This document shows, one piece after another, positions 17,404-46,389 of a stretch of DNA of 58,550 nucleotides (position 1 is its first letter; each line of letters starts with the position of its first letter). The DNA is from a virus. The stretch is from the IMG/VR virus record IMGVR_UViG_3300027875_000001. One strand, 5' to 3'. The notes under the pieces were generated by a model, which saw nothing but the letters and a program-made list of their open reading frames with translations, was not told where the DNA came from and did not search any database. Both the position numbers and the translations under genes were made by a program.

Positions 17404-19080
17404 ATGTCCTTACTCGACCTGCGGTCGTTAGAGACGAACTATTTTCTGACGGCTGCGGTTGGTTCCTTCCTCAAAGCGAGTCCTTCCTCCAATCTGCTGA
17501 AGGGTAGTTATCTCTCTGCTTCTGTGGGGTCGTTTGTTGAAGTCGGCAACGCGACGACTCTGCTTAAAACCAATATTCTTGTCTCTTCTGTTGGTAGTTT
17601 CCTCGAAGTTGGCAATGCTGCACCGTTACTCGAAGGGCACCGTCTCACGTCGGCAGTCGGGAGTTTTGTCGAGACAGGGATAGCTGCGTCGTTGTTAGAA
17701 GGCCATCTCCTGACGGCGGCTGTTGGGAGTTTTGTTGAGACTGGAAATGCCGCGCCACTATTGGAAGGCCATCGACTGACGGCAGCTGTTGGGAGCTTTG
17801 TTGAATCTGGTCTAGCAATCACTCTCCTCAAGACAAGCATTCTGGCTTCTTCTGTTGGGTCATTTGTTGAGACTGGCAACATCGCGAATCTCAATAAGGG
17901 CTACTACCTCTCTGCCACGACAGGATCATTCACAGAAACTGGCCTCGCGATTGTCCTCACTAAAACGAGCATTCTTGTATCGGCTGTTGGAAATTTTGTA
18001 GAGACCGGTGCGAGTGCTCCGTTACTCGAAGGCCATCTGCTTACGGCGGCGACTGGTGCGTACACGGAGACAGGCAGTGCCGCGTCACTTCTGACTGGCT
18101 ACGTGCTGTCGAGCGTTGCTGGCACTCTCATAGAGACTGGTTCTGCTGCATCGCTCCTTGAAGGCCATCGTCTGGTTGCAGCGACAGGAACCTACATCGA
18201 GACTGGTGTTGATACCGCGTTCCTGCGGGGCTACGCGTTAACGTGTGCAGCAGGTGCTTTTGTAGAAGTAGGAAATGTCGCAGCACTACTTGAAGGCCAT
18301 CTCCTCTCAGCGGCACTCGGTGTGTATGTCGAGAGTGGGAGTGCGGCTGGTTTGTTCGAAGGCGAGGGCCTGTTTGGGTTGGTTGGGAATTTCATTGAAA
18401 CAGGGATTGCTGTTTCGCTCCGTGCTGATCGTGACCTGATTGGACTTTCTGCTGCGTATGTCGAGACTGGTGCGGATGCTTCTCTGTTAACTGGTTATTC
18501 TCTCTCTGCTACTGGGGCGATTTTCAACGAGATTGGTATCGATGCTTCGCTACTGTTCGATCGGGTACTCTCTGCAGCCGTTGGAAATTTTGTTGAGTTA
18601 GGACAGGATGCGTTCCTCGGTGCGTTCCGCATTCTGAATGCTGAGCGTGGAATCTTTGTCGAAGTTGGGCAGGGCGCACAGTTTAAACAGACGGTTGTGC
18701 AGGCGGTTGGTGGAAGACGAGCACGACGAGAACGAAAGAAACCGCTTGCCGCGCAGTATACGCTGACTGCACAGAGCGGAACGTTCTTCTCGCAAGGGTA
18801 TTCCATTTCTCTCACGAGATCCTTGGTTCTACGCGCTGGATTGTCTAGCGTAGATGTCGCTGAGATCTCTTCGGGTGTGTTCAGGACCGCTTTTAGACTT
18901 CGCGGTACTGGAACTGAGTTTAATGCTGTTCCGCACGCGGCGGATCTCTCACGATGTGCATACCTTGCGTGTCAGAGTGGTGAGTTCAGTGTGGTCAATC
19001 TACCGAGTGTGTTGATGAAGACTGACATCGATCTGTTTCTTGATGATGATGAGTGGCTGTTCTTACAGGAGGCGGCGTAA
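17404..19080 (+). CDS. Tandem-repeat protein: about 19 consecutive 22-aa units, then a basic stretch and an acidic tail
   Basis: The unit consensus, read from the translation, is LLEGHxLTAAVGSFVETGNAAP. It is followed by GGRRARRERKKP, three degenerate units and DIDLFLDDDEWLFLQEAA. Confidence 0.75.
   Translation: MSLLDLRSLETNYFLTAAVGSFLKASPSSNLLKGSYLSASVGSFVEVGNATTLLKTNILVSSVGSFLEVGNAAPLLEGHRLTSAVGSFVETGIAASLLEGHLLTAAVGSFVETGNAAPLLEGHRLTAAVGSFVESGLAITLLKTSILASSVGSFVETGNIANLNKGYYLSATTGSFTETGLAIVLTKTSILVSAVGNFVETGASAPLLEGHLLTAATGAYTETGSAASLLTGYVLSSVAGTLIETGSAASLLEGHRLVAATGTYIETGVDTAFLRGYALTCAAGAFVEVGNVAALLEGHLLSAALGVYVESGSAAGLFEGEGLFGLVGNFIETGIAVSLRADRDLIGLSAAYVETGADASLLTGYSLSATGAIFNEIGIDASLLFDRVLSAAVGNFVELGQDAFLGAFRILNAERGIFVEVGQGAQFKQTVVQAVGGRRARRERKKPLAAQYTLTAQSGTFFSQGYSISLTRSLVLRAGLSSVDVAEISSGVFRTAFRLRGTGTEFNAVPHAADLSRCAYLACQSGEFSVVNLPSVLMKTDIDLFLDDDEWLFLQEAA
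17431..18684 (+). repeat. 66-bp in-frame tandem repeat array (about 19 copies, diverged)
   Basis: Periodicity is visible at protein level over residues about 10-427 of the 17404..19080 ORF. Neighbouring copies such as LLEGHRLTSAVGSFVETGIAAS and LLEGHLLTAAVGSFVETGNAAP are near-identical. Confidence 0.8.
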
Positions 19081-20754
19081 GTGCCTTCTTTTCCGCTCCA
19101 ATCAGCAGCCGCAGCGAGAATCCTCGAGCGGCTGGTCAGACGCAGAATCAGAAATGAGGTGTCACATCGCACTGCTGTGTCGCGGGAGAATGAGCTCCAC
19201 ACTGTCGCGGAGGAGTTCTTTCCAAAGTTTCGCGCTGTTGTTCGAGCGGCCTTTGCACGAGGACGTTTTGCGGTGGATCATGCTGCACTTCGCAAAGCCA
19301 CCACGATACATGACGCGCAGGTGGCGATATCTCCTGCTGCGTTTGCGACACAACGATACTTACAGCGTGAGTTGCCGAAGTTGTTGCTCAACCTGGTGAA
19401 AGCTGGCGGGAACGCTGGGTTGAAACGGCTCGGCTCAGTGCGCGGCCTTCGTGCTGCGGCTGATGATGATCTCTACTCGATGCGATTCGATGTGACGAAT
19501 CCCGATGTTCTTGAATGGATCAAGGAGCACACAGCCGAACTCATAGATGGGATTACAGAAACAACTCGACAGAATATTACCGATGCGATTGTGGCAGCGT
19601 TTGAAAGTGGGACTTTGCGTGAAGCCTATGATGACATTCTTGAATTGGTTGGAGACGAAAGCCGCGCCGAGTTGATCACTCGCACTGAGTGCATGATGGC
19701 AGCGAATGAGGGGCAACGCGAATCGTGGTCGCAAGCCGAAGAGGCGGGTCTGCTGACGGGGGATGAGAAACGAGTCTGGATCGCGACGGATGACGCTTGT
19801 CCTAAATGTGAAGAATTAGACGGACAGGAAGCGGATCTCGATGGAGTGTATCTCGGTGATGGTGAAAATGGTCCGCCCCTCCATCCGAACTCAATTGTCG
19901 CTGGTGTTTTGGTTGAGGGTAACACGATTGCGGCCACACGGATGTTATATGCGGGACAAGTCAGGGAAATCGTAATGATCAGCGGTCGAACGTTGACCAT
20001 CACACCGCACCACTCGGTAGCAACCCTTCGAGGATTCATTCCTGCTCACGATGTCGAGAAAGGCGAGTATTTGTTCTCTTACAATGAGCGGATCGAACGT
20101 AGTGACCCATCTGCCGAGTCCTTTTATCCTGCGGTGTCTGTTTTCTTTTCTCCACAAGAGAATCAGGACGGACCAACCACTATCGAGCAGGTCTTTCATT
20201 CGTTGAAACTCACTGGGAAACTTGTCGTTGCCGAGCGGTTTGGCGACGAGTTCCACGGCGACGCGGCGTATGGGAATGGCGATATCGACATTGTATATGC
20301 CGATGTCGAATTGGGGAATCGCGTCGAGGCCACAGTTGAGGATCAGCGCGAGGGTCTCGTGCTCGAATCCTCCGACCTTCTTGTTTCTGGATTGCGCAAC
20401 GCGCTCCTTGTGCAACTGGCTGCTCGATTGACCAAGCCTGCCAGCGTTATAGGCTTGCGGCCCGTCACGCAGCCAACGAAGACGTCCCGCATCGGATATA
20501 CCGCGTATCTCGATGCCGTGCTGTTCGAAATGGCTCGTCATTTTAACGCGAGAGATGCCAGCTTCTGCCGCGAGCTTGTAGAGCGGCTCGCCGGCTTTAT
20601 AACGCAAGACGAAGTGATCGAAGTTCGGAATCGGGACTATTTTGAACATGTCTATGATCTTAACACGATTAGCGGGGTTATTGTCGCGAACGGTTTCATA
20701 ATTTCGAACTGTCGCTGTACTGAAGGTATCGTGGCCGGACCGCCAGAGGACTGA
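19081..20754 (+). CDS. Head morphogenesis protein (Phage Mu F / SPP1 gp7 family) containing an intein
   Basis: RAELITRTECMMAANEGQRESW...WIATDDACPKCEELDGQ...GPPLHPN, then a 273-aa insert, then CRCTEG. In family members the hallmark is a contiguous PPxHPNCRC. Confidence 0.85.
   Translation: MPSFPLQSAAAARILERLVRRRIRNEVSHRTAVSRENELHTVAEEFFPKFRAVVRAAFARGRFAVDHAALRKATTIHDAQVAISPAAFATQRYLQRELPKLLLNLVKAGGNAGLKRLGSVRGLRAAADDDLYSMRFDVTNPDVLEWIKEHTAELIDGITETTRQNITDAIVAAFESGTLREAYDDILELVGDESRAELITRTECMMAANEGQRESWSQAEEAGLLTGDEKRVWIATDDACPKCEELDGQEADLDGVYLGDGENGPPLHPNSIVAGVLVEGNTIAATRMLYAGQVREIVMISGRTLTITPHHSVATLRGFIPAHDVEKGEYLFSYNERIERSDPSAESFYPAVSVFFSPQENQDGPTTIEQVFHSLKLTGKLVVAERFGDEFHGDAAYGNGDIDIVYADVELGNRVEATVEDQREGLVLESSDLLVSGLRNALLVQLAARLTKPASVIGLRPVTQPTKTSRIGYTAYLDAVLFEMARHFNARDASFCRELVERLAGFITQDEVIEVRNRDYFEHVYDLNTISGVIVANGFIISNCRCTEGIVAGPPED
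19891..20709 (+). mobile_element. Intein (273 codons) inserted between HPN and CRC of the MuF motif
   Basis: The N-terminal splicing region SIVAGVLVEG...GRTLTITPHHSVATLRGFIPAHDVEKGEYLF has a block A/B character (TxxH). The C-terminal region EVIEVRNRDYFEHVYDLNTISGVIVANGFIISN is followed by Cys+1. The penultimate residue is Ser rather than His. Confidence 0.75.
19945..20649 (-). CDS. Antisense ORF inside the intein: HTH plus DUF559/Vsr-like (PD-(D/E)xK) endonuclease candidate
   Basis: 234 codons, codon-aligned antisense to the MuF frame. YKAGEPLYKLAAEAGISRVKMTSHFEQHGIEIRG is HTH-like. QFDIGIYNVDIAIPIRRVAVEL and FQRMKDLLDSGWSVLILLW match my memory of the DUF559 core. Its composition is unlike the other long antisense ORFs in the window. 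Confidence 0.5.
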   Translation of the reverse strand: MFKIVPIPNFDHFVLRYKAGEPLYKLAAEAGISRVKMTSHFEQHGIEIRGISDAGRLRWLRDGPQAYNAGRLGQSSSQLHKERVAQSRNKKVGGFEHETLALILNCGLDAIPQFDIGIYNVDIAIPIRRVAVELVAKPLGNDKFPSEFQRMKDLLDSGWSVLILLWRKENRHRRIKGLGRWVTTFDPLIVREQILAFLDIVSRNESSKGCYRVVRCDGQRSTADHYDFPDLSRI

Positions 20755-20796: not shown

Positions 20797-21666
20797 ATGT
20801 CACTTCTTCGAGCTGACGCACGTGCGATCCCGTTGTGTGATGGTTGTGTGCAGACTGTTGTAACGAGTCCTCCGTATTGGGGGCTTAGAGACTATGAACT
20901 TGGTGCGGCAGGAATTGGAATGGAGCCGACATTAGAGGTATATGTCGCTGCATTGGTTAATGCTTTTCGTGAGATCTGGCGAGTGCTCCGTGATGATGGA
21001 ACTGTGTGGGTGAATCTCGGTGATTGTTATGCAACTTGTATTGACAAAGTTGGCAAGTTGAAGCCTAAAAATTTAGTTGGTCTGCCTTGGCGCGTTGCCC
21101 TCGCGTTACAAACTGATGGCTGGTATCTTCGTTCCGACATTATTTGGGCGAAACTTACATGTATGCCGGAGCCAGTCACGGATCGGCCGACGAAGAGTCA
21201 TGAGTATATATTCTTAATGGCGAAGTCTGAACGGTATTACTACGATGGCGATGCGATTGCCGAAACAACGACAGAAACAAGTGGCTGGTCGAGACAGCGG
21301 ATGCGTGGTTTAAACACATGGGAATACAACAATACAGCCGCGCGAATTGCCGCAACAGGACAGAGAGTTGAATCCAGTACATTTGGTACATTTGGAAAGC
21401 GCAACAAGCGCAGTGTTTGGACGATCAATACTGAGTTCAACCGTGGCGCGCACTTCGCAGTTTTTCCCGAGGCGCTCGTTGAACCGTGCATTCTCGCTGG
21501 CGCTCCGGTTGGCGGCCTCGTGTTCGATCCCTTTATCGGCTCTGGTACGGTGGGCGCAGTTGCCGAACGTCTCAGTCGTCGATGGGTCGGCATCGACCTG
21601 AGTTATCAGGATCTTGCTATTGAGCGTACAGCGCAACGCGGTTTTATGTTTGATACAGCTGTTTAG
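20797..21666 (+). CDS. DNA methyltransferase, N4/N6 type (beta class, N6_N4_Mtase-like)
   Basis: Catalytic motif VVTSPPYWGLRDY near the N-terminus. SAM-binding motif VFDPFIGSGTVGAVAE near the C-terminus. No cognate restriction gene is seen. Confidence 0.85.
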   Translation: MSLLRADARAIPLCDGCVQTVVTSPPYWGLRDYELGAAGIGMEPTLEVYVAALVNAFREIWRVLRDDGTVWVNLGDCYATCIDKVGKLKPKNLVGLPWRVALALQTDGWYLRSDIIWAKLTCMPEPVTDRPTKSHEYIFLMAKSERYYYDGDAIAETTTETSGWSRQRMRGLNTWEYNNTAARIAATGQRVESSTFGTFGKRNKRSVWTINTEFNRGAHFAVFPEALVEPCILAGAPVGGLVFDPFIGSGTVGAVAERLSRRWVGIDLSYQDLAIERTAQRGFMFDTAV

Positions 21667-22129: not shown

Positions 22130-24097
22130 ATGCTCTTTCATGTGCTGGCGAACTCCATTGGACGAACTCGTTTTCAGGTGTTCAATGGACGTGGACATCT
22201 AGTCGTGCCGGTTGTGGCGCTGGTCGAAGGCGTGATCCATGCCGTGAATGCTACTGTCCCAGAATTTGTGAGTGCGGAAGCGCTCGCCATTATGCCGCAG
22301 GCGTGGAATGGCCGACCGTTGGTGCTGGGCCATCCGATGCGTGACGGGAAACAGATCTCCGCGAACGATGCGACGGTGCTTGAGAAGCAAAGCTTCGGCA
22401 CGATTTTCAACGCACGGGTGGAGAACAAACGCCTGTTAATGGACGCCTACATCGATCCGTTGAAGGCTGAACAGGTTGGTGGAAAGAAGATGCTGGAGGC
22501 CTTACAACACGGTGAGATGGTGGAAGTCTCCGTGGGGGCTTTTGTCACAACACTGTCTGAACCTGGCGAATATAAGGGCAAGAAGTTCGAAGCGAAGTGG
22601 CAGACGATTGCACCTGATCACCTTGCCTTTCTGCCTGACGGACGCGGCGCGTGCAGTATCGATATGGGGTGCGGTGTCCCGCGTGCAGCGGTAGCACGGG
22701 ACTCGACGTTTCGCGCACTTCTCCAAGGCGTGCCACCTCGTGTGTTGGCTGGTGGTGGGGATCATCCCTTTACCTATTGCATGGAGACGATTGTTCCGGC
22801 GATTGAAGAGAAGCACGGGGCAATTGATGATCCGAATGCCTTCTGTGGATTCTGGAAAGCGGAACGTGCCGCGCAACAATTTGAACAGCAGAAGAAAGGA
22901 GGACGGCCGATGGACAAGCGCACGCTTCGTGCTCGTGTGAAATCATTGTTGGGGTTAAGAGCGTTAGATGATACGGCTAGTGAAGCGGCATCTGAAGAGG
23001 CGGCTGAACTGATTGGCTATAAGGCGATTCAATCACTCCTTGATAGTGTGGCGATGTGCCATGCGGAAGCCAGCATGTTGGTGAGCGATCTGATTGCGGA
23101 TGAAGTGGAAAATCCAACTGAGACGCCAGAGGATGAAGACGCCGAAGAGGAGGTTGAAGCGGCACGACTTGAAGCGATCCAGATGCAGTGTTATACGATG
23201 ACGAGTGCTCTGAGCAATGTGTTGTCCATGACGTACAAACTGCTCATGCCTGAGCCGATAGAAGCATCCGATCCGCGTTACATGGAGGCGCTGCGTGCTG
23301 CAGTGGGGGCACGGAACAGTGCGAAGGATTTGAAGACGTTGCAGAACGCGCATGATGCGACGCATGAGATGCACGGACATACCGTTGCGCTGGGTGCTGA
23401 GTGCAATGGGATGAAACTCTTGGAGAGAGGACACGACTGTGGATGCCAAGGAGGCGAGACGATGACAAAGGAGCAACGCGCGGCCACGATCAAGGCGCTC
23501 GTGGAACACACAGACAGCGGACTGATGACGGACGATACGAAGTGGCTGGAGCACATGCCTGACGCACGGCTCGAAGCGTTGGACGTGCAAGTGAAAGGCG
23601 GACTGCGCACGGCGGCGACGAAAGCGGAAGCTGAGAAAGTCATCAAGGACAAGCACACTGCGGACACGGCGCTCGCGGACCACGCGATGATGCTGAAGAA
23701 GAAGGGTGATGCGAAGGACGGTGCGAAAGATGGTGGAGATGATGGGATGAAGGGAGCAGAAGCGAAGCCACTCACGGAAGAGGATTTTTTGAAGCTGGCG
23801 CCCCCCTCGCTCAAGGCGCTTATCGAACGGACACAGGCGCGGGATGCCGCGCGGAAGATCGACCTCATTGAGAAACTGAAGACCGCACAAAGTGCCTACA
23901 CCGAGAAGGAGCTCGCCGAGCAGTCGTTGGATGTGTTAGAGCGCCTCGCGCTCGTGGCGAAGCTGGATCTGCCGCAGGCTGATTTTAGTGGACGGGGTAT
24001 GCCGCGTGCGGCGGCGAGTGAACCCGACGTGTTCTCGCATCCGCCGAATCCGTACAGTGATGAGGCGTTGAAAGCGTATCGGGCGAAGACGAACTGA
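22130..24097 (+). CDS. Scaffold-like protein with DUF2213-like N-terminal domain (possible prohead protease/scaffold fusion)
   Basis: It lies upstream of the decoration and capsid genes. The N-terminal 180 aa (PQAWNGRPLVLGHP...GEMVEVSVGAFV) resemble DUF2213 as I remember it. The remainder is acidic, Ala/Glu/Lys-rich and coiled-coil-like. Confidence 0.5.
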   Translation: MLFHVLANSIGRTRFQVFNGRGHLVVPVVALVEGVIHAVNATVPEFVSAEALAIMPQAWNGRPLVLGHPMRDGKQISANDATVLEKQSFGTIFNARVENKRLLMDAYIDPLKAEQVGGKKMLEALQHGEMVEVSVGAFVTTLSEPGEYKGKKFEAKWQTIAPDHLAFLPDGRGACSIDMGCGVPRAAVARDSTFRALLQGVPPRVLAGGGDHPFTYCMETIVPAIEEKHGAIDDPNAFCGFWKAERAAQQFEQQKKGGRPMDKRTLRARVKSLLGLRALDDTASEAASEEAAELIGYKAIQSLLDSVAMCHAEASMLVSDLIADEVENPTETPEDEDAEEEVEAARLEAIQMQCYTMTSALSNVLSMTYKLLMPEPIEASDPRYMEALRAAVGARNSAKDLKTLQNAHDATHEMHGHTVALGAECNGMKLLERGHDCGCQGGETMTKEQRAATIKALVEHTDSGLMTDDTKWLEHMPDARLEALDVQVKGGLRTAATKAEAEKVIKDKHTADTALADHAMMLKKKGDAKDGAKDGGDDGMKGAEAKPLTEEDFLKLAPPSLKALIERTQARDAARKIDLIEKLKTAQSAYTEKELAEQSLDVLERLALVAKLDLPQADFSGRGMPRAAASEPDVFSHPPNPYSDEALKAYRAKTN

Positions 24098-24565: not shown

Positions 24566-25612
24566 ATGTTCGAGAACATGCGATTTACGGCCAGCAATGG
24601 GAAGAGTCCGATTGCCGGCGCACTGTTGCGCAGTCTCGCTGAAAGTGGCGAGTTGTCGATTCCAGGGTTGCGTGCTCTGTCACCGTTGAGTGACAAGGCA
24701 CAGGTCATAGTCGATAAAGCGGTGGTCGAGGTGGGGCTTGAGCGGCTCGTCTTCGCTGCCGATCTGATGGCGGAAGGACTCACCTACAGTCTGCCTGACC
24801 CGTTGAGTGTGACGCAGCTTGAATGGGACACCGAGAACAAGGTTGGAACCGCGCAGCGGACGATGTCGCCATCGGCGCGTGGAGAGAATCAACTCTCCGA
24901 CCGGTCGCACAACCGTTTGCCGATCTACCTCACAACGGACGATTTCAGCATCGGGATTCGTACGCTGAAGATGTCTGAGCGTGTGGGACAGCCTCTCGAT
25001 ACGTCTCTTATCAAACAGGCGACGCGCCGTGTGAACGAGAGTATCGAGGATGCCGCGGTCAACGGGGCGACGACCCTCGATGGGCAGGCGTTGGTGGTTG
25101 GTGGTTATGGGGCGCCGGGTCTGCTCAATGCGCCGAATGCCAATTCGAACACGTTGAGTGTCGATTGGACGGCGGCGAACATCGTGGGCACGACGGGGCC
25201 GGCGATATTGAACGACGTGCTGGCGATGATCGGCAAGGAGCAAGCGGATAAGAAGTTTGGCCCTTACAATCTTTACGTCGGTACGCTCGCTGGGAACACG
25301 ATCGAGGGTGACTTCAAGACGAACACGACAGATACCATCCGTGAGCGTTTGCAGCGGATCACAGCTGGTGGCCGAATGTTGCAGATTCGTGTCGCGGATC
25401 GGATGCCTGGTGCGGCGACGGGCACGCAGTGCGCGCTTGTGCAGATGACATCTGACGTTGTAGAGATTGTCAACGGGCAACCGCCAACGGTGATTCCGTG
25501 GACCTCGCTCGATGGGTTCACGTTGTATTGGCTGATCATGGCAATTCAGGTACCGCGTGTGCGCAGTGACTACGACGGAAACAGCGGAGTGTGCATTGGT
25601 ACGAAGTCATAG
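24566..25612 (+). CDS. Major capsid protein (HK97 fold, encapsulin-like family)
   Basis: 348 aa. LSPLSDKAQVIVDKAVVEVGLERLV..., LPIYLTTDDFSIGIRTL..., ESIEDAAVNG and GPYNLYVG follow the layout of encapsulin/HK97-type shell proteins. Position is canonical. Confidence 0.75.
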   Translation: MFENMRFTASNGKSPIAGALLRSLAESGELSIPGLRALSPLSDKAQVIVDKAVVEVGLERLVFAADLMAEGLTYSLPDPLSVTQLEWDTENKVGTAQRTMSPSARGENQLSDRSHNRLPIYLTTDDFSIGIRTLKMSERVGQPLDTSLIKQATRRVNESIEDAAVNGATTLDGQALVVGGYGAPGLLNAPNANSNTLSVDWTAANIVGTTGPAILNDVLAMIGKEQADKKFGPYNLYVGTLAGNTIEGDFKTNTTDTIRERLQRITAGGRMLQIRVADRMPGAATGTQCALVQMTSDVVEIVNGQPPTVIPWTSLDGFTLYWLIMAIQVPRVRSDYDGNSGVCIGTKS

Positions 25613-43932: not shown

Positions 43933-43998
43933 ATCAGATGACGCCAAGTGAGATGGCGACGCACCAGACGGACTGTCGATGCGGCCGAGCATTTTAGC

Positions 43999-46389
43999 AT
44001 GAGTCTGCCGTTTCTTCTCCTCCTCGGTGGCACGTCTGGGACTGTTACCGTTACCCAGACGCAAGCCGAGATCTTTGCGACTGGCGATCCCTCTGCGATC
44101 GCCACACAGACCTCGGTTGAAGCCTTCGGACTCTCCACACCGAGCGCCTTCGGCACCCAGACCTACGCGGAAGTCTTTGGCAGTCCTCCGCCGAGCGCCA
44201 TCGAGACGCAGATCTATGCGGAGATCTTCGGTGAAGTACGTCAAGCCGTTTTCACCAATGCCGATATCTTTATCGGCATTGTGTGGATGGAGCTCACCAC
44301 GCGTTCCGGCGTCCAATATGTCTGGTCCGATCGGCGCCTTCCAGATCCCAGTTCCTATTACCTCGGGAATAAAGAACCGCGCGTGATCGAATGGCAGCGC
44401 ATTCGGCGAGCGTTCAGTGGGATGAATGGGGAGTATGAAACCTCGGACTTCGGTGTCACTCTCTCCGATACCGATCGCTTGCTGCGCGAGCTGGACAAGG
44501 AGAACGAACTCGTCAATGCGACGGTGATTGTGCGCATGATCACCGATCCCGGTCGGCGGCGGCTTGAACGGCCGCGTGTGATCTATCGCGGGATGGTCCG
44601 TCACGCAGCCCCAAAGGGCACACTCGAATACATCCTGACCATTAAAGATCCCTTCGCCGAGCAATTCTCGCTGTCCACGCAGAGTAGTCTCTTGCCCCAT
44701 CGCACGGTGACACGAACGGATTTTCCCAATTGCACCGTCGACAAAATTCGTTCGTCAGCAGAAGGCTACACGACGAATGGGACTGGTGCAATTGGCGTCG
44801 GAACGATCAACGTCCATGCGGGCGTGGGGCAATTTGCCCCAGGGGACATCTTCAGGTTCTCTGGACATACCACCGTCTATACTGCCTCTGATGGCTCTGG
44901 GACAGACCCAGAAACGAGTCTGACGTTTACACCGAACCTGACGAATGCCGTGATTGTCGGTGAGACGATTACGCAAGACCCCTCGCACAGCGTGCCGACC
45001 TCGATGGGCTTTCGTGTGCCGATTGTGTATGGCTACATCACGGACCGGAAGATCATTAGCGGAGAGGATGCTGGCGACGGACAGGGACCGGTACTCTATG
45101 TCGGGGATCGGGTGCTCAGTGATGGAAAGACCTATGCGGAGTTTCTTTGGGCTGGACATGCGTGCTATTCACCGAGCGATCGCCCGTTCACGATGCTGTA
45201 TTTCTTCAACAATGCCCTCGATGATATGGCGGTTGGAACGTTCTATCATAATGCGCTGATTTTGCATGTCGCGAATCTGGCGACTGAAGCCGGAGCGGGC
45301 GGACGAGCGGCTGTGCCAGGGTATGGGAACTGGACGGCACTGGGTTTCACGACGCCGTATGTGGACTACGGTGGGCGTCGCTACACCGTGTTCTTTCTAC
45401 GAGGCTTGCTCCGCGATTGGGCGCTCGGCGTGATGCCAGCGCCCTTTGCCCTCGGGGGCATCCCGATGTGCGTCAACGCTTATGGGGTAGAGACACATGG
45501 TGACGGCAGCGGAGCACTCATCAGTAATGGATTGCTGCAATATCAGCATGCCGTCGTGAACTGGTTCCCGCCGATTGGGAATGGCTATCAATCCGGCGCG
45601 TGGTTGACGGCGCCAGTCTTCCCTGATGGCACCTCGATGATTGAGGAAAATAGTTTTCTCGTGGCCAATGCGCAATCAAAGGTCTATGTCAATCCGCTCG
45701 GATTTCGAGGGGATTTTATCATCGGGGCAGGGAATGAAACCGTCACCGCTCGAGAACTGATTGCTCGGTTCAATGTCTCCTTCGGGGTGAATGCCGGATT
45801 CAATTTGAATACACAGTTTTTCATTCGATTGGTGAATACCAACTTGGCGACAACGGCGTTGGCGAACCCCCTCGGCTATGTGCGGGATATCTTTGCCGGC
45901 ACCTTCGAAATCGAGCCGCTCGACCGGGAACTGTATACCGCGTTGGATTACCGGCATACGCAGGACTATTTGAAACGTGCACCGGACGGTTGGCGGTCGT
46001 CGCTCGGTGGTGTTGTCGAGGTGGAGAATAGTGGAGCCACCTCAACGTTCGGAAGTAAGACCACGTTTTCGCAGTTCAAGATGTTCATGATTCGTGGGAA
46101 GAACCGTGCAGAGGACGCTGATGAGTATGTGGCTGGAACGGATACCGCTAATGCTGTGCTGGCGCTAGCCCTCGCACGCTATTCGGCGATCCAGCACTTA
46201 CCGAAATTACAGACAGGTCCAGCGGGGTATAATTACGAGTTGGGCGACGTGGCGTTGATCTCGCACTATGAAGGGTTGAGCAGTATTGGATGGACCGATG
46301 CGCCGTGCAGGTTAGAACGCACGGAATATGACCCGTCGCAGTTCACGGCGTTTTTGGAGTGGTATTATTTACCACCGGTGTTAGTGTAG
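43999..46389 (+). CDS. Large tail-tip/host-specificity-like protein
   Basis: About 796 aa from ATG 43999; the track ORF starts at 43948. It is the last large gene of the tail module. The N-terminus has 3.5 copies of a 17-aa repeat (TQxxAExFG...PSAI). Confidence 0.5.
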   Translation: MSLPFLLLLGGTSGTVTVTQTQAEIFATGDPSAIATQTSVEAFGLSTPSAFGTQTYAEVFGSPPPSAIETQIYAEIFGEVRQAVFTNADIFIGIVWMELTTRSGVQYVWSDRRLPDPSSYYLGNKEPRVIEWQRIRRAFSGMNGEYETSDFGVTLSDTDRLLRELDKENELVNATVIVRMITDPGRRRLERPRVIYRGMVRHAAPKGTLEYILTIKDPFAEQFSLSTQSSLLPHRTVTRTDFPNCTVDKIRSSAEGYTTNGTGAIGVGTINVHAGVGQFAPGDIFRFSGHTTVYTASDGSGTDPETSLTFTPNLTNAVIVGETITQDPSHSVPTSMGFRVPIVYGYITDRKIISGEDAGDGQGPVLYVGDRVLSDGKTYAEFLWAGHACYSPSDRPFTMLYFFNNALDDMAVGTFYHNALILHVANLATEAGAGGRAAVPGYGNWTALGFTTPYVDYGGRRYTVFFLRGLLRDWALGVMPAPFALGGIPMCVNAYGVETHGDGSGALISNGLLQYQHAVVNWFPPIGNGYQSGAWLTAPVFPDGTSMIEENSFLVANAQSKVYVNPLGFRGDFIIGAGNETVTARELIARFNVSFGVNAGFNLNTQFFIRLVNTNLATTALANPLGYVRDIFAGTFEIEPLDRELYTALDYRHTQDYLKRAPDGWRSSLGGVVEVENSGATSTFGSKTTFSQFKMFMIRGKNRAEDADEYVAGTDTANAVLALALARYSAIQHLPKLQTGPAGYNYELGDVALISHYEGLSSIGWTDAPCRLERTEYDPSQFTAFLEWYYLPPVLV

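Follow-up and report, generated by a model that had tools for sequence, protein, structure and literature searches.

An intein and an antisense gene in the MuF locus

The locus described here lies in a 58,550-nucleotide stretch of viral DNA, IMG/VR record IMGVR_UViG_3300027875_000001, the whole of which is referred to as the window. It comprises a gene for a MuF-like minor head protein, interrupted in frame by an intein, and, nested within the intein on the opposite strand, an open reading frame (ORF) for a predicted homing endonuclease. The MuF gene (19081..20754, plus strand) specifies a precursor of 557 amino acids. Pfam domain analysis revealed Phage_Mu_F at residues 164 to 270, and this match, together with matches to head-protein families of PHROGs, places the protein in the MuF/SPP1 gp7-type head-morphogenesis class. 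It belongs to a plus-strand head module that also contains genes for the portal, a DNA methyltransferase, and the major head protein. A protein identical to the precursor is present in the JGI collection (P0151).

The limits of the intein were set by alignment with three homologues that have no intein (P0158, P0159, and P0162); these read PPLHPNCRCTEG and are uninterrupted at the insertion site (...GPPLHPNCRCTEG...). At the same place the window protein reads GPPLHPN, 273 additional residues, and then CRCTEG. The insert is in frame and exactly 273 codons long, as the initial annotation had proposed for an element with Hint-like ends at HPN/CRC (here and below, a slash outside parentheses marks a splice junction). 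The N-extein (residues 1 to 271, 19081..19893) ends in GPPLHPN. The intein runs from Ser272 to Asn544 (19894..20712) and is followed by Cys545, the +1 residue, and the short C-extein, CRCTEGIVAGPPED, with its stop codon occupies 20713..20754.

Inspection of the intein revealed the expected splicing blocks. Its N-terminal Hint region (19894..20082) contains block A (SIVAG...), with Ser272 at position 1, and block B (TPHH, residues 308 to 311, at 20002..20013); the residues of this region are near-invariant among the 76 nonredundant loci described below. In most relatives the first residue is Cys and block B reads TPNH. The C-terminal Hint region (20617..20712; ...EHVYDLNTISGVIVANGFIISN) holds blocks F and G, which in the window read ...HVYDLNTISGVIVANGFIISN, and it was recognized by the family consensus (E/Q)VVE(I/V)R.F.FSGHVYDLQ...SN/CRC. 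The penultimate His of block G is absent from the window and from most relatives, which end in Ser-Asn (SN/C); HN/C is found in a minority. Active inteins that do not have this His exist, and a Ser at the position is not disqualifying. The Pfam Intein_splicing model matched the window protein with an E value of 2e-5 (24.8 bits, under the gathering cutoff of 35.8 bits) and matched all 42 related sense inteins, the best at 3.9e-11. We conclude that the MuF gene carries a genuine intein at the conserved HPN/CRC site, and its splicing is predicted from these features.

Between the Hint regions lies a linker (20083..20616) that is in frame and has no stops. The initial annotation had recognized no LAGLIDADG or HNH endonuclease signature in this sense-frame middle, and profile searches agree: the only Pfam matches of the window protein were Phage_Mu_F and Intein_splicing, and a nuclease family was matched in 0 of the 42 related sense inteins.

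On the minus strand, a 234-codon ORF (19945..20649) runs opposite to this part of the gene. Its ATG (20649..20647) is opposite the CAT codon of His523 in the sense sequence EHVYDL, and its TAA stop (19947..19945) is opposite the TTA codon of Leu289. The ORF has the coordinates and the codon-aligned register first reported for it. It occupies the part of the intein that separates block B from block F, where an endonuclease domain is usually found, and extends slightly into both splicing regions. We regard it as a candidate antisense homing-endonuclease gene from the combination of the ORF itself, its homologues, Pfam matches in its family, a structural model, and the conservation of the arrangement.

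The codon-aligned register is a permissive one. A stop on one strand can arise only from TTA, CTA, or TCA on the other, and all three codons have synonymous alternatives, so an endonuclease gene can keep the intein frame open without change to its own protein and vice versa. In either of the remaining registers, a stop straddles two codons and would limit the choice of amino acids. The length of the ORF is uninformative by itself in this genome. Codon-aligned antisense runs free of stops are also found in the genes at 22130..24097 (300 codons), 24566..25612 (308 codons), and 43948..46389 (269 codons), which correspond to the other long antisense ORFs of the initial annotation. TTA, CTA, and TCA make up 2.3% of the codons in the long genes of the window, and at that usage the chance of 234 codons free of them is about 0.0045 per placement. 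Within the MuF gene, these codons number 6 of 271 in the N-extein and 1 of 273 in the intein, the single one being the endonuclease's own stop; this contrast is suggestive. This qualifies the reasoning of the initial annotation; homology and conservation across loci are what place the ORF beyond chance.

A family of predicted helix-turn-helix and Vsr-like nucleases

The predicted antisense protein was compared with 1.84 billion cluster representatives by phmmer. This yielded 830 matches at an E value of 1e-3 or lower and 224 at 1e-10 or lower, the best being 1e-47, and many of the matched proteins were 225 to 250 amino acids long and aligned from end to end. The same query gave nothing in a word-indexed protein search, a PDB sequence search, PHROGs, or NCBIfam, so that the family was seen only by the exhaustive phmmer search.

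Thirty-two members were aligned (alignment A1) and compared with Pfam one by one. MTES_1575 was matched by 24 of the 32 (best, 1.2e-10), DUF559 by 17 (best, 1e-6), and a helix-turn-helix (HTH) family by 19, namely, HTH_58, HTH_7, or HTH_38. Residues M1, G20, R49, E96, Q113, D122, E133, and Y211 are invariant in this alignment, all of them kept by the window protein, and R150 and W159 are conserved. The motifs from which the initial annotation had proposed a DUF559/Vsr-like nuclease (QFDIGIYNVD..., VAVEL, and DLLDSGWSVL) proved to be the conserved core of the family, and its assignment of an HTH segment and a nuclease is supported at the family level. Following the Glu of an N-terminal helix (E96), the acidic residues of the core are D122 and E133; D132 and E143 are conserved acidic columns of the 76-locus alignment. 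Some relatives (loci L006 and L007) contain E-x-Y-G-G-x-W-H where the window has ELVAKPL.

An AlphaFold2 (AF2) model built from the 32-member alignment had a mean predicted local distance difference test score (pLDDT) of 88.3 and a predicted template-modeling score (pTM) of 0.70. It comprises an N-terminal helical module and an alpha-beta-beta-beta-alpha-beta core. The predicted HTH DNA-binding module (residues 9 to 62; 20464..20625, minus strand) is made up of helices at residues 10 to 18, 23 to 30, 34 to 43, and 51 to 62 and coincides with the HTH matches in the family. The Vsr/DUF559-like PD-(D/E)xK core (residues 95 to 170; 20140..20367, minus strand), with D122 encoded at 20284..20286 and E133 at 20251..20253, is supported by conserved columns, an MTES_1575 match, Foldseek, and third-position variation; its modeled elements are helices at 96 to 105 and 145 to 156 and strands at 111 to 116, 119 to 125, 130 to 135, and 160 to 165. 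The C-terminal tail (residues 186 to 234; 19948..20094, minus strand) overlaps the Hint N-domain according to the codon map. Foldseek paired the model with 3r3p, the catalytic domain of I-Bth0305I (probability, 1.00; template-modeling [TM] score to target, 0.6), with the Vsr structures 1cw0 and 1vsr (probability, 0.99), and with the DUF559 protein 3hrl (TM score, 0.75). On the strength of family profiles and the model, the antisense ORF probably encodes an HTH module joined to a Vsr/DUF559-like PD-(D/E)xK nuclease, for which DNA cleavage is predicted.

The copy number of the HTH unit varies from one to several among relatives. A 563-amino-acid protein (P0094) contains at least seven HTH repeats of the family type and a C terminus that resembles a GIY-YIG domain (...APDGRFYFGST...). 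To judge from such sequences, different families of homing endonucleases may have the HTH module in common, and part of the 830 phmmer matches may be through this module alone.

Conservation of the two-strand arrangement

Using narrower family alignments (A2 and A3), we retrieved 99 related loci, 90 on viral contigs and 9 on bacterial genome contigs, the latter including Pseudomonas paraeruginosa ATCC 9027 and Atlantibacter subterraneus; with the window, the sample comprised 100 loci. In 100 of 100, the codon-aligned frame opposite the endonuclease contained 0 stops over the length of the endonuclease region, and the other two opposite frames had up to 58. Wherever the contig reaches that part, the open opposite frame encodes a MuF-like protein with an intein, in sense stretches of up to 1,583 amino acids. 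Nearly all loci have the intein at the same site, xN/C...SN/CRC, with the consensus C(F/L)LPGT...VTPNHP(I/V)LT...GHVYDLQ...SN. Both frames are open over 700 to 1,150 nucleotides at the sampled loci.

The endonuclease ORF covered the family model in 96 of the 100 loci, so that homologous inteins keep the antisense frame. The remaining four consist of one truncation at a contig end, one ORF narrowly under the coverage cutoff, and two copies with real damage. The first damaged copy (L006:2674-3363) has a single in-frame stop in the endonuclease frame, and its intein frame is open (932 amino acids); the second (L009:2935-3635) has a frameshift that touches both frames. Locus L010 (198-2006) encodes a member of the same endonuclease family with at least four HTH repeats (382 open codons), both frames being open over about 1.15 kb. 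Its intein is at a different MuF site (...STTC/F...VKN/CRSLDG), upstream of an intact HPNCRS.

The absence of stops was also assessed statistically. At the rate of TTA, CTA, and TCA in the exteins (1.33%), about 247 such codons would be expected in the 18,601 overlap codons of the 76 nonredundant loci. None was observed in either frame (log10 P of about -133).

The same layout was found in the cultured phages Gordonia Fosterous, Salmonella vB_SenS_SE1, and Pseudomonas vB_Pae_BR313c. In total, 112 GenBank phage records had an antisense match (62 from Salmonella phages, 15 from Pseudomonas aeruginosa phages, 15 from Gordonia phages, and others). The feature annotated at these matches is a single gene product, which, where named, is a MuF, head-morphogenesis, or similar structural protein. 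In three records that were inspected (MH976510, 8095..11325; MK479295, 34269..36128; MK511015, 11750..13408), the MuF gene, which is on the opposite strand, is the only annotated one, with no feature given for the antisense ORF. The family is far from rare, comprises hundreds of clusters at 50% identity, and is found mostly outside actinophages.

Selection differs along the overlap

Since the two frames are codon aligned, one codon alignment of the 76 nonredundant loci serves both strands. Across the HTH module and the nuclease core (family columns 9 to 185), the mean pairwise identity was 0.34 for the endonuclease versus 0.23 for the sense protein, and 19 columns reached an identity of at least 0.8 in the endonuclease versus 4 in the sense protein. 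Nucleotide entropy in these columns peaks at the third position of the endonuclease codon, which is position 1 of the sense codon. Gly20, for example, is encoded by GGN, with entropies of 0, 0, and 1.72 by codon position. The identities of the leading endonuclease columns were 1.00 for G20 and R49, 0.97 for D132 and R160, and 0.95 for E143.

Over the Hint N-domain, which is opposite the endonuclease tail (columns 195 to 233), the pattern was reversed. Here 10 columns were at least 0.8 identical in the sense protein versus 1 in the endonuclease, entropy peaked at position 3 of the sense codon, and sense residues such as the block B His were invariant. Five independent close pairs of loci gave the same picture. 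In the core, single-base changes that were silent in just one of the two frames numbered 83 for the endonuclease and 29 for the sense protein; in the Hint N-domain, the corresponding counts were 5 and 10. We take these patterns to show that purifying selection acts on the endonuclease frame in the intein middle and shifts to the intein frame over the Hint N-domain. This answers the question, raised by the initial annotation, of which strand is free to vary.

The dominance of the sense frame over the tail can be read in individual residues. Block B is mirrored in the C-terminal motif of the endonuclease family (Y-G/R-V/M-I/V-x-G-D/N-G), and in the window the codons for VVRCDG (within the tail sequence YRVVRCDG) are exactly those for block B TITPHH in reverse complement. 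The sense His opposite endonuclease column 212 limits that column to Val or Met in all cases.

Translation signals within block F

At the other end of the overlap, 51 of 72 loci have the His codon CAT immediately before V-Y-D of block F, which gives ATG on the antisense strand; in 10 more the codon is CAC, which gives GTG. The Leu of block F YDL is encoded by CTC in 50 of 53 cases, compared with 35% CTC among the Leu codons of the exteins. This CTC places TGGAG(G/A)TC on the antisense strand and, with it, a Shine-Dalgarno sequence (GGAG) 8 to 9 nucleotides upstream of the antisense start. A start codon and a Shine-Dalgarno sequence kept in this way within block F are strong indirect evidence, drawn from codon choice, that the antisense ORF is translated.

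The sense linker

An AF2 model of the sense intein had a pLDDT below 50 in the middle region, although it was built from only 7 sequences versus 32 for the antisense model, which makes the comparison uneven. Together with the pattern of variation, this suggests that the polypeptide made from the intein middle is largely a passenger translation of the antisense gene.

Two islands in the linker are exceptions to the general pattern of variation (family columns 139 to 144 and 159 to 169). In the first (20251..20265), the codons CGC-GTC/ATC-GCC-GTG-GAA/GAG specify R-V-A-V-E in the endonuclease and F-H-G-D-A in the sense protein (GCC is present at 69 and GTG at 57 of the 76 loci). The second encodes R..EYLLD.GW in the endonuclease and P..IE.VF..L in the sense protein. 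All three codon positions are nearly fixed in both. These islands lend themselves to a more far-reaching interpretation, namely, that the element is an ancient module functional on both strands, in which the linker has a function of its own and the antisense orientation has been selected to uncouple the endonuclease from a late, highly expressed head gene. We offer this as a tentative idea that is rather doubtful at present. Codons shared between block B and the endonuclease tail, between block F and the start codon with its Shine-Dalgarno sequence, and between sense FHGDA and the catalytic RVAVE strand may be viewed in this light. If this dual-function interpretation is true, few other conserved examples of full-length dual coding on opposite strands in bacteria and phages would be as large or as old as this family, and its presence in cultured Salmonella, Pseudomonas, and Gordonia phages would make it testable.

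Proposed mechanism and alternative explanations

We propose, with a probability of roughly 80%, that the window carries a MuF intein whose homing endonuclease is a separate gene on the opposite strand. The MuF mRNA would be translated through a largely meaningless linker that is kept free of stops, and protein splicing would then remove the linker together with the Hint domain, restoring HPNCRC. An antisense mRNA would give rise to the separate endonuclease with its HTH module and Vsr-like PD-(D/E)xK core. This enzyme would presumably cut intein-less MuF alleles of coinfecting phages or prophages, and repair would copy the whole element into the cut allele, so that intein and endonuclease together would behave as a bipartite selfish element. 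Each of the three refuting checks that the initial annotation had set (nuclease family of the antisense product, endonuclease domain in the sense frame, and antisense stops in homologous inteins) turned out in favor of the claim. The sequences establish both ORFs, the exact insertion, the family membership of both products, the conserved arrangement, and purifying selection on each strand over its own part of the overlap; from these we infer that the antisense gene is transcribed and translated, that its product cleaves specifically, that the intein splices, and that the opposite orientation may have a regulatory benefit.

Several observations weigh against this proposal or against parts of it. 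The window itself does not have the family GGAG: the position of the Shine-Dalgarno sequence (20659..20663, minus strand, 8 to 9 nucleotides upstream of the ATG) is degenerate, reading TTAAG in place of TGGAG, and the sense sequence DLN, with Leu encoded by CTT, gives TTAAGATC, a poor Shine-Dalgarno sequence. Neither a sigma-70-type promoter nor a terminator was detected near the antisense gene when the window was searched for consensus sequences. The match of the window protein alone to Pfam MTES_1575 is weak (residues 95 to 162; E value, 0.013; 16 bits, with a cutoff of 38.2), and the Foldseek E values for the nuclease matches are also weak, ranging from 0.012 to 1.5. The low confidence of a sense model built from 7 sequences is weak evidence of disorder, and the islands FHGDA and P..IE.VF are conserved beyond what the endonuclease needs, which argues that the linker is not purely passenger. 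Finally, the loci were retrieved with peptide patterns taken from the family itself, so that "all loci" means the sampled family and not every relative.

The antisense ORF could in principle be a noncoding shadow, its family being the mirror of a conserved intein domain encoded by the sense strand. Antisense frames in this register are often open, as in the other window genes with codon-aligned antisense runs of 269 to 308 codons, the C-terminal motif of the endonuclease truly mirrors Hint block B, and the word-based, PDB-sequence, PHROG, and NCBIfam searches were empty for the window protein. However, variation in the core falls at antisense third positions and the conserved residues there are the antisense ones, family members match nuclease and HTH families of Pfam with E values down to 1e-10, and the model, with a pLDDT of 88, has a Vsr-like fold. 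Moreover, the start codon and Shine-Dalgarno sequence are kept by biased codon choice in the sense gene, and the sense middle has no domain match. A chance ORF and a mirror of a sense-encoded domain were both rejected on the homology, the family Pfam matches, the strand-specific variation, and the biased codons; we consider this explanation extremely improbable. It is also very improbable that MuF is made as two polypeptides joined by trans-splicing, as in a fractured gene or split intein, with the endonuclease gene between them and the open sense frame incidental. The free-standing endonucleases of fractured genes are, like the present one, of the Vsr-like superfamily, but their genes lie between two separate ORFs of the original orientation, with short same-strand overlaps. 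Here the endonuclease is nested antisense within a single continuous sense ORF, which is unbroken throughout the 100 loci, the window included, where approximately 247 stop-shadow codons would be expected. An unbroken frame makes sense only if read-through translation is required, and a fractured or split gene was rejected for these reasons.

A more substantial alternative, although still an unlikely one, is that the antisense gene is real and is not an active homing enzyme in the window phage. It might be a relic in decay or might have been domesticated, with a role in DNA binding or regulation, in competition between phages, or in antisense control of MuF. The degenerate Shine-Dalgarno sequence and the lack of a recognizable promoter in the window are in line with this, as is the decay of the endonuclease in 2 of the 100 loci, with the intein frame open in at least L006. 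A recent preprint also describes mostly vertical inheritance for some VSR-like groups (bioRxiv 10.1101/2025.01.02.630785). On the other hand, the ORF of the window is intact and has kept every residue that is invariant in the family (M1, G20, R49, E96, Q113, D122, E133, and Y211), and family-wide purifying selection on the nuclease core implies that enzymatic function has been maintained. We therefore favor a separate, opposite-strand homing endonuclease that would still be active.

Relation to known systems

The feature in the window belongs to a kind that was recently described. The initial annotation had supposed that an antisense-nested endonuclease was undescribed, which is not the case. 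Antisense homing endonucleases (HENs) of the LAGLIDADG type in inteins were noted by Gorbalenya in 1998 and by Gogarten et al. in 2002, as cited in the preprint mentioned above (Gosselin, Arsenault & Gogarten, bioRxiv 10.1101/2025.01.02.630785), which cites the Synechocystis DnaX and Chloroflexus SpoVR-like inteins as examples. The same preprint describes antisense VSR-like HENs, matched to 1CW0 and 3R3P, in full inteins of actinobacteriophage minor capsid proteins, and it arrives independently at the interpretation favored here. These actinophage inteins, and not the fractured gene proposed at first, are the closest known arrangement.

The likeness to the actinophage inteins extends to the MuF-like minor capsid host, the contiguous intein, the antisense HEN ORF, and the fold matches to 1CW0 and 3R3P. 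In addition, a member of our family (P0010) matches the antisense strand of Gordonia phage MuF genes (E value, 5e-26), such as those of Fosterous and Vivi2. Since the phages with VSR-like HENs are not named in the main text of the preprint, we can only presume that these Gordonia phages are members of its clusters. A difference is that the window is not an actinobacteriophage record, and the GenBank carriers mostly infect Proteobacteria. Compared through the same citing paper, the antisense LAGLIDADG inteins likewise have a HEN opposite a contiguous intein but differ in the nuclease superfamily and the host genes. The present analysis adds several points that are absent from the main-text parts of the preprint (its supplements aside), namely, the family size and host range, the invariable codon register, a quantitative account of how selection passes from one strand to the other, the overlap of the ORF with both block B and block F, and the start codon with its Shine-Dalgarno sequence in block F.

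Inteins in MuF proteins are themselves familiar: Novikova et al. (2016, PMC4760082) listed 14 in prophage proteins of the COG2369 MuF/gp6 type. Canonical bifunctional inteins, whose LAGLIDADG or HNH endonuclease is in frame, resemble the present element in the insertion between Hint blocks B and F and in the presumed homing cycle. They differ in that here the endonuclease is outside the intein polypeptide, and the in-frame segment matches no nuclease family. In fractured genes, split-intein halves flank a free-standing Vsr-like or GIY-YIG endonuclease gene, which overlaps the downstream gene on the same strand by 6 to 69 bp (Dassa et al. 2009, PMC2677866). Common to both is a stand-alone Vsr-like nuclease that is tied to an intein and is a protein separate from the one that splices. 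In fractured genes the host gene is in two ORFs; the present host ORF is unbroken, with the endonuclease gene wholly nested antisense inside it. I-Bth0305I, the closest structural match by Foldseek probability, is an EDxHD-type Vsr-like homing endonuclease (PMC3239194; PDB 3R3P).

Long, conserved, fully antisense overlapping genes are controversial in bacteria and phages, and most cases come from a single genome; the present case can be argued from sequence alone. Gene callers applied to metagenomes evidently choose one strand or the other at such loci. Surveys that look for in-frame endonuclease domains would probably score inteins of this kind as endonuclease-less. With the element in cultured phages, antisense expression, homing, and splicing are accessible to experiment.

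Neighboring genes

Two neighbors of the MuF gene were also noted. Between the portal and MuF genes, an ORF of 558 amino acids (17404..19080, plus strand) consists almost wholly of degenerate repeats of about 22 residues (LLEGHRLTAAVGSFVETGxAAx), and Tandem Repeats Finder (TRF) detected a 66-nucleotide period at 17632..17801; the ORF had no PHROG family match. Directly downstream of MuF is the DNA methyltransferase gene (20797..21666, plus strand), which matches PHROG 67 with an E value of 2e-57 and contains an SPPY motif. Any promoter of the antisense endonuclease would have to be within or before the methyltransferase gene.

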